46,181 nt of DNA from a virus. The position numbers and the translations under genes are program-made. Below, one piece after another: positions 26,738 through 34,087 of the stretch; position 1 is the first letter of the stretch; every line of letters begins with the position of its first letter. A model generated the notes under the pieces. It ran no database searches, was not told the DNA's origin, and saw only the letters and a program-made list of their open reading frames with translations. The stretch lies in IMG/VR virus record IMGVR_UViG_3300022692_000007; one strand, written 5' to 3'.

Positions 26738-27826
26738 ATGTCTGTTACAATTGTAGATGCAAAAACTATTGAAGATAATTTGCCATTTATTTTAAAATGG
26801 TCTAAAAATCCAATTGGAAACGGTGGAGCAATCAATCCAGGTTGGAAACAGCAAACTGAAATTGATAGGTTCCTTGAATTAGTTGAAAGTACTCCAAGTA
26901 TATTAAACGATGCAAGATTTATTCAAATGGATAGTATTGAACACGATATTAACTACCTTCGTGTAAAAGCAAGATTACAATCCATGAAAAAATTGTCTGG
27001 TGAAAATAAAGGTGCACCACTTCAAAAAGATTACACCACTGCTATTGAAGAAACCGTACCTGAATTTAGTAGGTCCAGACTTGTAGCTGAACCATTCTCA
27101 ATATTTACATACACCAGCAAATTATTCTTAAAAACCAATATCGAGCACGATTCTTTCTTGACTCATATTGAAGCTATTCTTGCTGAAAGGGCAGGTTATT
27201 CTGCTGAAAATATTGGAATGTATGGTATCAAAAACGAGAACACTACAAGTACTGATGGTGTACATCAAATTGACGGTGTTTTCAAACAATTGGAAGATAT
27301 TGCAAGTAATTACGAAACCAATGTTGCAATTGACCGCAGAGCGCCTATGGGTTATTACCATGACATTGATGCAAGTGGTGATTTGGCAAAACAAATCAAA
27401 AGAATGATTACCCAATTCACCAAACAGAAAGGTAAAAGGTCTAAAGCAAAAATCTATGTTTCTACTGAACTTGAAGGTTTATTAATTGAACAGGCTGACC
27501 AAAGACCAACTCAAAGAGGTGATAACCTTTACTTTGATGATAATGGTCAGTTAACACTTTGGGGTGTTCCAATTGTTCAAGCTGATTTCTTAGATGAACC
27601 TGATAATGGATTTGAAGAACAAATCTTAATGGCTGATCCAGATAGCATTGTATTTGGTTTTTTAAATGAAATCGAATCTGAAAACGAATATGAATTATCT
27701 GCAAAAGCATATCTTTCAACTGTAGATGTTTACTTTGATGTATTGATTTTATACAACAAAGATGTATTGGCTGCAAGAATCACCAATATACCATCAGCTG
27801 TTGAGGACGGTGAGGATTCTCCCTAA
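26738..27826 (+). CDS. Major capsid protein (HK97 fold)
   Basis: 362 aa after the protease. LWGVPIVQADFL and ILMADPDSIVFG are typical of the HK97-type C-terminal part. Ends CCC-TAA. Confidence 0.85.
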   Translation: MSVTIVDAKTIEDNLPFILKWSKNPIGNGGAINPGWKQQTEIDRFLELVESTPSILNDARFIQMDSIEHDINYLRVKARLQSMKKLSGENKGAPLQKDYTTAIEETVPEFSRSRLVAEPFSIFTYTSKLFLKTNIEHDSFLTHIEAILAERAGYSAENIGMYGIKNENTTSTDGVHQIDGVFKQLEDIASNYETNVAIDRRAPMGYYHDIDASGDLAKQIKRMITQFTKQKGKRSKAKIYVSTELEGLLIEQADQRPTQRGDNLYFDDNGQLTLWGVPIVQADFLDEPDNGFEEQILMADPDSIVFGFLNEIESENEYELSAKAYLSTVDVYFDVLILYNKDVLAARITNIPSAVEDGEDSP

Positions 27827-28148
27827 TAGTGAGGTGAATCCTGAAAAAAGAAATATTGGTGTAACTGTAACTGATGGTTCCACTTCTATCAGTGGAGTTT
27901 CTGTCGGATTATATCCATCAGCGGAACATCCTGAAGGGGAGCCAATTAAATCATGTACTACTGGTAGTGCTGGTGGTTGTACATTAAGAGATGTGGAAGA
28001 TGGAGAATATCTATTATTTGCATCAGCAACTATATCTGGTGAAGATTATACTGCTGAAAGAATTATTGATGTTTCTGATAGTAATGATGAGTTTGAACTG
28101 ATTTTAATTAATGTTTCGGAACCTATAGATAGTGGAAGGATTACTTGA
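27825..28148 (+). CDS. Ig-like domain in the +1 frame, probably expressed as a capsid C-terminal extension
   Basis: Open in the +1 frame across the MCP stop (CCT AAT AGT GAG...). No in-frame ATG after the MCP stop. IGVTVTD...GVSV...TTGSAGGCTLRDVEDGEY is an Ig/prealbumin-like beta-sandwich pattern. Confidence 0.7.
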   Translation, partial: NSEVNPEKRNIGVTVTDGSTSISGVSVGLYPSAEHPEGEPIKSCTTGSAGGCTLRDVEDGEYLLFASATISGEDYTAERIIDVSDSNDEFELILINVSEPIDSGRIT

Positions 28149-28238
28149 TTATGATTAATTTTTAGGTTGAAAATTACTTATCAAATTTTCAATCCTATGA
28201 TTAATTATTTTAGTACTTTTTTAAAGGTTGTGTGAATA

Positions 28239-31302: not shown

Positions 31303-31716
31303 ATGTCTGCTGAAAAAGAAAAGCAAAAAGAATTAGAACACTTACAAAAAGAGGAAGAAATTTTTGAATTGGATCAGATAATCACTGAAGGAACAAATGC
31401 TAAAATACCATTCACATTCATTTATCCAAATACTACAAAAAAGGTTGGAGTTTTAATAAGACCATTATCAACAAATGAATATCAAAAAGCCATATTATCA
31501 AGTAAAAGACTGAAAACTAATCTATTGATTGAACTTGCTAAATTAGGCGTTTACAAACTTGATGAAACCAAATTCCCTGATGATTTACTGGCTGAATTGC
31601 CGGCTGGTGTAATAACAAGAATTACAAATGAAATTAACAGAATAAGTGGTGTGGAATTGATGGATACATCAGAAGATGCACAACAACAAATATTTGATGA
31701 TTTAATGGGGTTTTAG
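31303..31716 (+). CDS. Tail assembly chaperone (G-like)
   Basis: Between tube and tape measure. VLIRPLS motif. Ends ATG-GGG-TTT-TAG. Confidence 0.7.
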   Translation: MSAEKEKQKELEHLQKEEEIFELDQIITEGTNAKIPFTFIYPNTTKKVGVLIRPLSTNEYQKAILSSKRLKTNLLIELAKLGVYKLDETKFPDDLLAELPAGVITRITNEINRISGVELMDTSEDAQQQIFDDLMGF

Positions 31717-31889
31717 ACCTAAAAACTGGTAAATTAAGACATTTAACTCAATTATATATTGCGGGACATAGATTAAACAATGGAAATATTGAAAATTTGA
31801 CAATCTTACAACAAATGGCAATAATATGTATGAAAGAAATTGCAAGACAACATAGCTTGAAAAATAAAGCATTTTTAGTAGTTGATTAA
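31707..31889 (+). CDS. -1 frame extension of the tail chaperone (T-like), absent from the ORF track
   Basis: Frame open 31701-31889 (GVLDLKTGKLRHLTQLYIAGHRLNNGNIENLTILQQMAIICMKEIARQHSLKNKAFLVVD*). No early start codon. Ends 2 nt before the TMP ATG. Confidence 0.6.
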   Translation, partial: GVLDLKTGKLRHLTQLYIAGHRLNNGNIENLTILQQMAIICMKEIARQHSLKNKAFLVVD

Positions 31890-31891
31890 CA

Positions 31892-34087
31892 ATGGTAGAT
31901 AATAATCTTGATATTAACATTACAGCAAGAGCTGACAAGACTGAAGTTGAGGATTTGTCCGAAGCCATATCCACACTAAAAGAAATGGAAAGTGATGTAG
32001 ATATTGATGTTAATGTTGAAGATTCAGAAGTTGTTAATGCTGAAGAATCTGTAGAAAATCTTGATACCTCAATGCAAAATGCCTCAAATAGTTCTGATAA
32101 TTTATCTTCATCATTAAGTGGCATTGACAGTTCACCTATAGATGAATTAGGGGTTTCTGCTCAAAATGCTGAATCAGATGTTGAAGGATTAGGAAATAGT
32201 CTTGAATTAATTGAAGCCGGAGCTTTAATGAGTATATCAAGTGAGTTATCCAGTATTGGTAGTAACGCTGAAGGTATGGCTCAAGATATGAACACAGCAG
32301 CCATAAGTGTTGGTCAACTATCGACACAAACAGGTGTTGCCGAACCTAAAATGATTAGTTTAATTAATAATATATCAAATGCTACATTTCCAAATGATGA
32401 AGCAATGATGTATGTTAAAAGTCTTGACCAAATCGGTGTTTCTAGTGAAAATCTTGGCAAATCAGCAACAGATTTAGACCGTATTAATGATGCATTTGGT
32501 CTGGGTGCTCAAACTACAAATAGCTTAGGTCAGGAACTTAGTGTTCTTGGTGTAGATATGAATAATGTTTCATCAAGTTTTAATGCACTTGCTTATGCTA
32601 ATTCAAACACTGTCGGCGGAATGCAGAACTATTATACTTTCTTAAGAAAATATGACTCCCAATTCAATGAATTAGGTTTTAATGTTGATCAAGCATCTGT
32701 CATTATTGCTGGTGCCACACAAAAATTTGGTGGCGGTCGTGCAGCGTTAACTGGTTTATCAGATGCATTAAAAGAATCTAATGGTGATACAAAAGCATTA
32801 GAACAAGCACTTGGACTTCAAGCTGGATCAATTTCAAATGCTTCTCAACTAACTGGTGAATATGAAGGTCAATTACAAACACTTGCTAGTGAAGAAGCTG
32901 AACATAAAACTTGGTTGGACCAAATAAATGCTGCTTGGGAAGATATGAGTCTTTTAATGTCTCCTGTATTAGCTCCAATGACTAGTTTTTTAGGTTTAAT
33001 TGGTCAAGCCGGTTCATTTGCTGTGGGTATTAATGGTATTGTAACTCTTGCAGGTTCATTAAAGACATTAGAATTAACTCAAATTGCAAGTAATATTGCA
33101 ACTAAAGCGGGTGCTGCAGCTCAATGGTTAATGAATGCAGCAATGAGTGCAAATCCAATAATGATTGTTGTACTTGCAATCATCGCATTGATTGCAGTTT
33201 TAGGTTATCTTTACTTTAATAACGAGCAAGTAAGGGCCGCAATAGATGCTTTGGGCCAATCTTTCATATTGGCTGGTCAAATAATTTATACTTCTGTTAT
33301 GAACTTTGTAAATTGGGTTATAAGTTCACTGCAAAACCTTTACACTTATATTATGACATTAGGAGGATTATTACAATCCAATGTTTCAATAACTGGCAAT
33401 AATATTGTTGATGGTGTAATTGGTGTAATGATTTTTATTGCAACTCTTCCATTCCAATTAGCAATGATATTCACCAATATGATTGCAAGAACACTTGGAT
33501 TTGGTAATAATTTTGTCCAGAGAATGTTAAGTGCTGGTGTAAATTCAGTTACTCGATTTATGGGTCAAATTTCAAGCATGCCTGGTAGGTTTGTGGCTGA
33601 ATTGAACAGTATGTTAAGTGCTGTAGGACAATGGGCTGCAACATTACCTCAAAAATTTTGGGAAGCCGGTGTCAATGCTGTTAAAAATTTCCTGAATGCT
33701 TTAGGTATTCATTCTCCAGGAATTATGCAAATAAAATTGCTCAAGGAGATGGAGGATACAGGTGATAGAATTCCAACTGCAAGTCAAAACATCATCAGAA
33801 ATCTCGGAAATGTAGGGGAAAATGCTGTTAAATCCTTCGGAAATCCAAGATTCAATGTTGGTTTTAATACCGACAGTTTAAATGATACCAACGCATCAAA
33901 TTTCGATTTTTCTAACGAAAATTTATTAGAAGTATTATTGGCTATTGGTGATAATAAAAATGGTAATGTGTTAAATCTCACTTTAAATGTTGGCACAGTT
34001 GATAAAAGGGAAAGAATTGATGAAATCATTGAAGTTATCAGAGAATACATATTTTGGGATAATAAAACAGCAGGGAGGACAGTATGA
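31892..34087 (+). CDS. Tape measure protein
   Basis: 731 aa, Ala/Gly/Ser-rich helical protein. ANPIMIVVLAIIALIAVLGYLY segment. C-terminal LGIHSPG motif. Confidence 0.88.
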   Translation: MVDNNLDINITARADKTEVEDLSEAISTLKEMESDVDIDVNVEDSEVVNAEESVENLDTSMQNASNSSDNLSSSLSGIDSSPIDELGVSAQNAESDVEGLGNSLELIEAGALMSISSELSSIGSNAEGMAQDMNTAAISVGQLSTQTGVAEPKMISLINNISNATFPNDEAMMYVKSLDQIGVSSENLGKSATDLDRINDAFGLGAQTTNSLGQELSVLGVDMNNVSSSFNALAYANSNTVGGMQNYYTFLRKYDSQFNELGFNVDQASVIIAGATQKFGGGRAALTGLSDALKESNGDTKALEQALGLQAGSISNASQLTGEYEGQLQTLASEEAEHKTWLDQINAAWEDMSLLMSPVLAPMTSFLGLIGQAGSFAVGINGIVTLAGSLKTLELTQIASNIATKAGAAAQWLMNAAMSANPIMIVVLAIIALIAVLGYLYFNNEQVRAAIDALGQSFILAGQIIYTSVMNFVNWVISSLQNLYTYIMTLGGLLQSNVSITGNNIVDGVIGVMIFIATLPFQLAMIFTNMIARTLGFGNNFVQRMLSAGVNSVTRFMGQISSMPGRFVAELNSMLSAVGQWAATLPQKFWEAGVNAVKNFLNALGIHSPGIMQIKLLKEMEDTGDRIPTASQNIIRNLGNVGENAVKSFGNPRFNVGFNTDSLNDTNASNFDFSNENLLEVLLAIGDNKNGNVLNLTLNVGTVDKRERIDEIIEVIREYIFWDNKTAGRTV

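Follow-up and report, generated by a model that had tools for sequence, protein, structure and literature searches.

A +1 reading frame behind the major capsid protein gene

How can an open reading frame (ORF) be translated that lies directly behind the stop codon of a major capsid protein (MCP) gene, in the +1 frame and without an ATG? This question is raised by IMG/VR virus record IMGVR_UViG_3300022692_000007, a stretch of 46,181 nucleotides (its full length is referred to as the window in the following) from a tailed (myovirus-type) virus or provirus of Methanobrevibacter. As a preliminary description had already pointed out, and as the sequence bears out, the MCP ORF ends in GAT TCT CCC TAA (CCC, 27821-23; TAA, 27824-26). 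This TAA is followed in frame by TAG (27827-29) and TGA (27830-32). The +1 frame, in turn, continues from 27825 with N-S-E-V-N-P-E-K and runs through 107 codons without any methionine to a stop codon at 28146-48. Among ATG, GTG and TTG codons, a GTG at 27834 is the only one in the first 150 nucleotides of this extension, and the -1 frame is shut after three codons. For bacteria and eukaryotes, programmed +1 frameshifting has been elucidated, and archaeal ribosomes are essentially untested in this respect.

Very probably, the MCP gene undergoes a programmed +1 frameshift at CCC_U and thereby gives rise to two proteins, the 362-residue MCP and a 469-residue form that carries an additional domain. 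It is the combination of an invariant rare CCC, a fixed reading frame, the lack of a conserved start codon and the existence of in-frame fusions in related viruses that argues for a programmed +1 frameshift and not for separate initiation. Most ribosomes would end at TAA 27824 and release the 362-residue MCP, while some would pause when peptidyl-tRNA-Pro occupies the rare CCC and the stop codon has entered the A site. The tRNA-Pro would then slip by one nucleotide onto CCU (27822-24), decoding would restart at AAU 27825, and the long product would comprise the MCP, a short linker and a C-terminal beta-sandwich of the prealbumin/PEGA type. The junction peptide predicted for this form reads ...GEDSPNSEVNPEK (...D-S-P-N-S-E...), and its tryptic version would be ITNIPSAVEDGEDSPNSEVNPEK. 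Both forms would co-assemble, with the sub-stoichiometric long subunits showing their domain on the head surface, where it would probably serve as an adhesion or stabilisation module. The pair of a 362-residue and a roughly 469-residue form had been proposed in the preliminary description, and the conservation of the locus in relatives, as outlined below, supports it.

Within the window itself, 10 of the 337 proline codons in ORFs of at least 120 residues are CCC (3%). When all in-frame CCC codons are surveyed and one in a spurious antisense ORF (31702-32124, minus strand) is set aside, the CCC at the MCP end is the only one where the +1 frame outruns the stop codon of the ORF containing it, namely by 108 codons. 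The extension is not a chance ORF. Positions 27821-27826 are bridged without an inserted or deleted base by contigs from three runs labelled as metatranscriptomic and from one DNA run, each belonging to a separate study; the junction is therefore no assembly artefact, and there is no hint of a correction at the RNA level, the contigs being consensus sequences that are blind to proof of transcription, expression level, transcript ends and rare indel variants. In one of the runs (X5), a minor contig departs from the window directly after the junction, at 27846.

Conservation of the proposed shift site and of the +1 frame

A search of 5.8 billion proteins yielded 121 MCP homologues, down to 52% identity, and two pattern scans added about 50 loci with DNA. 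The MCP genes without a fused domain comprise 44 distinct genes, which are phylogenetically related and fall into 11 clusters at 80% identity or, with the L027 clade included, 12. All 44 have an in-frame CCC 0 to 5 codons 5' of the MCP stop codon. Elsewhere in the same genes only 6 of 535 proline codons (1.1%) are CCC, and the prolines neighbouring the shift site are encoded by CCT or CCA. The base 3' of this CCC is either T, as part of TAA, TAG or TGA, or A, and no other; in clades in which a sense codon follows, this codon is AGC, AAT, ATT, ATC, AGT, AAA or AAC, and the codon in the +1 frame is thus CCA. Sites of the CCC_stop type occur in at least three of the clusters. In the clade of the window, with MCP identities of 84-97%, the last sense codon is always CCC and the stop codon behind it varies (Table 1), further 0-frame stops often lying next to it. 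The shift site is hence kept across 12 clusters while the stop and the flanking codons differ. In line with this, the C-terminus lies 0-6 residues after a proline in all 114 unfused cluster representatives examined at the protein level.

The reading frame of the extension is equally invariant. Each unfused MCP gene is followed by a +1 ORF of 77-178 codons, the domain being always encoded in the +1 frame, and this frame is open from 5' of CCC at every unfused locus; in the relatives from the window clade named in Table 1 the +1 ORF has 84-178 codons and encodes this domain once or twice. At three loci (L056, L036 and L044) the +1 frame opens just 1-2 codons 5' of CCC. The -1 frame does not exceed 38 codons in any relative.

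A start codon conserved for the extension ORF was sought across the relatives, and none was found. The codon equivalent to GTG 27834 is GTC in L004, GTA in L007 and L008, and GGA in L010, and ATG 27762 is cut off from the extension by +1-frame stops in L003, L006 and L035, where the +1 frame opens 26-29 nucleotides before the stop codon. In the part of the +1 ORF that matters here, L056 lacks ATG, GTG and TTG altogether, and in L039 none of them occurs before position +46. Neither the GTG near 27833-27834 nor ATG 27762, from which the domain might have been translated separately according to the preliminary description, is therefore conserved among relatives, and the conservation of CCC and of the +1 ORF, to which the same description had looked, is found in all 44 unfused genes.

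Furthermore, the MCP family includes natural fusions in a single frame. L009, a member of the window clade, lacks the CCC-stop arrangement, its MCP passing via a linker of Ser, Thr, Gln and Glu into the domain within one protein of 465 residues, and this in-frame fusion shows that the covalently fused polypeptide is a functional form. The L009 locus resides on a 64-kb contig (JAFRCC010000006.1) of a metagenome-assembled genome (MAG) labelled 'Clostridia bacterium', and its MCP is 88% identical to that of the window; most likely, it is a misbinned contig of a Methanobrevibacter virus or provirus. In L061 the MCP and the domain are likewise fused in frame and a terminal CCC is missing, and P0020 (444 residues) is an in-frame fusion at the protein level. 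P0022 (442 residues) and P0114 (527 residues) are presumably fused as well, judging from their length and from Pfam matches to PEGA/CarboxypepD_reg.

Altogether, the locus thus combines the sequence features of +1 sites of the CCC_N type in phage structural genes, i.e., a rare CCC at or next to the 0-frame stop, a proline codon retained after the +1 step, an open +1 ORF without initiation signals of its own, and conservation beyond what coding needs.

The appended domain

AlphaFold2 models the domain of the window with seven strands at a mean predicted local distance difference test score of 86, and Foldseek matches this model to CnaB, transthyretin and carboxypeptidase regulatory domains with template modelling (TM) scores of about 0.5-0.6. 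Among 20 homologous extensions, 16-17 match PEGA, CarbopepD_reg_2 or CarboxypepD_reg in Pfam, with expectation (E) values down to 1e-9. The window's own domain, the most diverged copy, reaches an E value of about 0.01, which is below the gathering cut-off. Classical immunoglobulin (Ig) families are found in few of the 20 extensions, with Big_1 in one (E 1.4e-3) and fn3_3, which is domain II of polysaccharide lyase family 4, in two (E 1.6e-3), and none of the 20 matches I-set or Big_2. The preliminary description had announced an Ig-like beta-sandwich: the structural model agrees with a beta-sandwich, but with one that resembles the PEGA/prealbumin type; the Pfam results speak against a classical Ig-like domain of phages (I-set, Big_2, FN3), and 'Ig-like' can be kept only as a loose label for beta-sandwiches.

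The extensions align well, sharing the motif TTGSAGGC and a terminal TSFTISL strand, and the median of their pairwise ratios of nonsynonymous to synonymous substitution rates (dN/dS) is 0.41, which shows that the extension is under purifying selection. Several +1 extensions are modular (L007:4097-4630, L010:4097-4612, L019:2216-2710, L037:2197-2685 and L039:1361-1855), consisting either of one or two PEGA-like domains or of a PEGA-like domain with a different module of about 80 residues before or after it (motifs KYxFDSFG and AYQLYT). It appears that domains have been exchanged while the shift site in front of them stayed the same. Among viral structures, BFVD entry A0A8S5MT17 matches the window domain best (32% identity). 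This 'carboxypeptidase regulatory-like domain protein' of 97 residues comes from a human-gut Siphoviridae contig and is annotated as a stand-alone protein, and it may likewise be a frameshift extension to which a gene of its own was assigned.

RNA structure and tRNA supply at the site

Of 38 distinct junctions, 15 carry a hairpin beginning 5-9 nucleotides 3' of CCC (5-7 nucleotides in 14 of them), as compared to 7% of control codon positions within the same genes. The stems have 5-7 base pairs and the loops 3-9 nucleotides, and clades differ from each other by compensatory changes (TCAGGA/TCCTGA, TCAGAG/CTCTGA, CAGAC/GTCTG), the evidence coming from a scan of each sequence against an internal background and not from a formal covariation test. 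These hairpins are candidate stimulators of frameshifting, especially where a sense codon follows CCC. RNAalifold returned no consensus structure for 18 junctions, since MAFFT set the stems of the clades out of register and the stem of the window clade is imperfect. In the window, the main stimulator is probably the stop codon.

Two further elements near the site were considered as stimulators. AGGAUUC at 27813-19 and GAAUCCU at 27836-42 flank CCC_TAA with a perfect complementarity of 7 base pairs, and covarying equivalents are found in L003 (GATTCA/TGAATC) and L027 (GATTCT/AGAATC) and are lacking in L004, L007, L008, L010 and L035; this pairing was discounted, as a ribosome positioned on CCC would have melted it. 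In the CCC_stop clade, moreover, a Shine-Dalgarno-like GGTGAT or GGTGAGGA lies 4-6 nucleotides 5' of CCC (27809-27816 in the window, as well as in L004, L007, L008, L010, L027 and L035). A role for it as a prfB-like stimulator is left as speculation, because Gly-Asp codons give the same letters in this codon usage.

A stable hairpin with a U-rich tract follows the extension ORF (Table 1), and L003 and L004 have one of the same kind. The hairpin may mark the end of the transcription unit or a processing site of an abundant capsid mRNA, and its position after the extension ORF and not after the MCP stop fits one transcription unit spanning both. A scan for sigma-70 promoters and terminators was not used as evidence, the virus being archaeal.

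With regard to tRNA supply, four host MAGs (G002-G005) each contain a single proline tRNA gene, tRNA-Pro(UGG) with G37 after the anticodon (e.g., L067:1870-1947, minus strand), and isoacceptors with GGG or CGG anticodons were found in these four MAGs neither among the tRNA hits, 31-39 for each genome, nor in a similarity search. ARAGORN finds no tRNA gene in the window, so that the virus has no tRNA-Pro of its own. If complete genomes, too, had tRNA-Pro(UGG) only, CCC would be read by a weak U:C wobble, and the tRNA would pair better once it had slipped to CCA or CCU. The constant presence of A or T behind CCC would be accounted for in this way. A wider reading can be built on this, to which we give slightly less than even credence: Methanobrevibacter would read all CCN codons with one tRNA-Pro(UGG), CCC_A and CCC_U would be prone to slippage, and the viruses would have fixed this weakness as a recoding signal, tuned either by the stop codon or by a covarying hairpin 5-7 nucleotides downstream, which would set the fraction of domain-bearing capsid subunits.

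Table 1. Position and basis of features at the end of the MCP gene, in window coordinates unless a locus is given
Feature	Position	Strand	Basis
MCP gene, 0 frame, 362 residues, XkdG/PBSX-like, HK97-type	26738..27826	+	ORF, phrog_1623 match, tblastn, gene neighbours
Proposed +1 shift site CCC_U; peptidyl-tRNA-Pro would re-pair from CCC (27821-23) to CCU (27822-24)	27821..27824	+	sequence; CCC invariant in relatives
Tandem 0-frame stops TAA TAG TGA, the first in the A site during the proposed shift	27824..27832	+	sequence
+1-frame extension ORF, 107 codons and stop, without ATG, conserved start or Shine-Dalgarno sequence	27825..28148	+	translation; homologous +1 ORFs
Predicted prealbumin/transthyretin-like beta-sandwich (PEGA/CarboxypepD_reg type), extension residues 8-93	27846..28103	+	AlphaFold2, Foldseek, Pfam in homologues
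Stable hairpin and U-rich tract after the extension ORF, before the next gene (28239)	28151..28222	+	RNA fold -19.8 kcal/mol, z = -3.2 against shuffles
Stop after CCC in close relatives: TAA (L006, L007, L035), TAG (L003), TGA (L004, L008, L010)			
Junction hairpins in relatives	L015:3530-3565, L016:3560-3595, L021:3527-3562, L022:3530-3565, L042:1558-1593, L056:626-661		

Alternative explanations

Free decoration proteins are common among phages, and the domain ORF might accordingly be a separate small gene whose product binds the capsid non-covalently, translated by its own initiation or by termination-reinitiation at a non-ATG start. Such starts exist: the +1 frame of the window has TTG 27801 and GTG 27810 before the MCP stop and GTG 27834 after it (at -23, -14 and +10 from the stop), in the clade with the KYxFDSFG motif TTG stands directly after CCC with GAGGTGGTG about 10 nucleotides upstream, and the 97-residue homologue in BFVD is annotated as standing alone. 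However, the position of these starts is not conserved, down to the complete lack of candidates in L056 and up to position +46 in L039, and the GAGGA in front of GTG 27810 ends 2 nucleotides before it, too near for a Shine-Dalgarno sequence. If the ORF were a gene in its own right, moreover, its frame would not be +1 at all 44 loci and the rare CCC of the MCP gene would not be invariant. The in-frame fusions, for their part, show that the domain works when covalently joined to the MCP. A separate gene is therefore considered unlikely. Less probable still, and in our view very unlikely, is a shift that is real but brought about by transcriptional slippage, editing or another nearby codon instead of by slippage of tRNA-Pro on CCC. 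As the mechanism is read from the sequence, and as the two frames overlap by up to 59 codons in the CCC_A clades, other sites are formally possible, yet three C in a row fall far short of what polymerase slippage needs, the contigs from RNA libraries (consensus sequences only) carry no indel at the site, the late opening of the +1 frame in L056, L036 and L044 pins the shift to CCC or to the few codons that separate it from the stop, and the rest of the frame overlap is without conservation. Finally, because in-frame fusions occur in the MCP family, the +1 ORF might be regarded as an unexpressed, decaying remnant of an ancestral L009-like fusion that was broken by a frameshift mutation. With ORFs kept open over 77-178 codons in about 40 distinct loci of genomes with a G + C content of about 30%, with a dN/dS of about 0.4, with a domain architecture that varies and is nevertheless always intact, and with a break point that is always CCC, this explanation is hardly credible.

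Several points nevertheless weigh against a programmed +1 frameshift at CCC_U. The long product is a prediction from the sequence, and to our knowledge programmed +1 frameshifting has never been shown experimentally on archaeal ribosomes. The non-ATG codons of the window listed above offer possible sites of separate initiation. The hairpin of the window itself (27830-27844, TGAGG/CCTGA) is imperfect with one mismatch, the fold of 101 nucleotides around the site is not significant (z = -1.2), and the lack of tRNA-Pro(GGG) rests on incomplete MAGs. Also, the loci compared are phylogenetically related, so that the counts overstate the number of independent observations.

Gene context and host

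The MCP matches phrog_1623 ('virion structural protein') over residues 39-338 with an E value of 4e-26, its HK97 fold being assigned by this profile match and by gene position, and its tblastn hits in Bacillus and Clostridium phages, at 25-27% identity, are capsid/XkdG genes. Genes for a portal protein, a head-morphogenesis protein and an XkdF-type prohead protease lie 5' of the MCP gene, and neck (head-tail) genes and a tail sheath gene lie 3' of it; with its profile match and the portal-protease-MCP head module, the MCP belongs to the XkdG/PBSX-like group (phrog_1623).

The G + C content of the window is 30%. Near-identical or related loci are found on IMG/VR contigs and on Methanobrevibacter MAG contigs, and as the latter, 110-188 kb in length and derived from goat, reindeer and rumen samples, carry relatives of the window, the host of the virus is a methanogenic archaeon, namely Methanobrevibacter, a methanogen of gut and rumen.

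Implications

For the annotation of such genomes this means that the ORFs of 84-178 codons behind these MCP genes appear as separate calls, are overlooked or bear the label 'hypothetical', and that the long form of the capsid protein goes unpredicted. At the same time, nature provides a series of variants in which CCC is followed by any of the three stop codons or by one of seven sense codons beginning with A, in which a 3' hairpin is present or missing, or in which MCP and domain are fused in frame. This series is a direct basis for reporter constructs and for searches of metaproteomes. Should the tentative reading with a single tRNA-Pro hold true, these viruses would offer the first experimentally tractable and evolutionarily replicated case of +1 programmed frameshifting on archaeal ribosomes, in which about a dozen natural variants of the site and the in-frame fusions would serve as built-in controls.

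Comparison with known recoding systems

What appears to be new here, and is well supported, is a predicted +1 site of the CCC type in the capsid gene of an archaeal virus, whereas the kind of site as such is known from bacterial phages. Full-text literature searches found no account of such a site in an archaeal virus capsid gene, although Medvedeva et al. 2023 might mention one. The novelty is thus narrower than the preliminary description had suggested, because a -1 shift in the MSTV1 group (see below) and, as far as can be gathered from the paper citing it, a +1 shift in HSTV-2 had already been proposed for archaeal viruses. The latter concerns the tail assembly chaperone of a haloarchaeal myovirus (cited in PMC5009743). 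To the extent described there, it resembles the window in that a +1 frameshift has been proposed for a tailed virus of an archaeon, but involves a gene pair of the G/GT type for a tail chaperone in a halophilic host of high G + C content, and not a capsid gene.

The closest counterpart of the window site is found in the tail tube proteins gp17.1 and gp17.1* of Bacillus phage SPP1, which are produced at a ratio of 3:1 by a +1 shift at CCC_UAA from the rare CCC to CCU (PMC6316719). The hexamer CCCUAA is identical, a rare CCC would likewise be exchanged for the overlapping CCU at a stop codon, and the outcome would, as in SPP1, be a structural protein extended at its C-terminus. The domain added in SPP1 is a non-essential beta-sandwich of the FN3 type, the one in the window is PEGA/prealbumin-like, and the SPP1 shift is experimentally proven and takes place in a tail tube protein and in a bacterial host, in contrast to the prediction made here from sequence for an MCP and an archaeal host.

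In Listeria phage PSA, the capsid gene cps has the site ACA_CCC_UCC with a pseudoknot and the tail gene tsh has CCC_UGA, the tsh genes of phages A118 and A500 also undergo +1 frameshifting at CCC, and CCC makes up 5% of the proline codons in Listeria (PMC5009743). The precedents for CCC-UAA that the preliminary description had named hence hold for SPP1 but not for PSA, which uses other contexts of CCC in both of its genes (PMC5009743, PMC6316719). As in PSA cps, the gene concerned encodes the major capsid protein and its extension would result from a +1 shift at CCC, read as proline, and the host has a low G + C content; moreover, both types of PSA sites, i.e., CCC_stop and CCC_sense with a 3' RNA structure, have counterparts in the MCP family of the Methanobrevibacter viruses. 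PSA differs by its bacterial host and its unrelated MCP family, and the sense sites described here are always CCC_A, with a 3' element that is, where present, a simple hairpin of 5-7 base pairs.

With respect to host genus and to gut and rumen habitat, the MSTV1-like siphoviruses of Methanobrevibacter ('Usuviridae') are most similar, for which a -1 frameshift in the MCP gene (A_AAG_GAA) has been predicted to add an Ig-like domain and in which one relative is fused in frame (Baquero et al. 2024, PMC11375127). Both groups would thus equip a fraction of their MCP with a C-terminal beta-sandwich, and both include an in-frame fused relative. However, a -1 shift of the MSTV1 type was rejected for the window, given that the -1 frame closes after three codons there and after at most 38 in the relatives, and that the domain is always in the +1 frame. 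The two predictions therefore differ in direction and site (+1 on CCC_U/A as opposed to -1 on A_AAG_GAA) as well as in virion type, a sheath-bearing myovirus type as opposed to a siphovirus. If both are correct, the window and its relatives would represent a second and mechanistically distinct route to heads decorated with beta-sandwiches in viruses of gut and rumen methanogens, and the existence of two such routes would be consistent with these domains being an adaptation to the gut environment.

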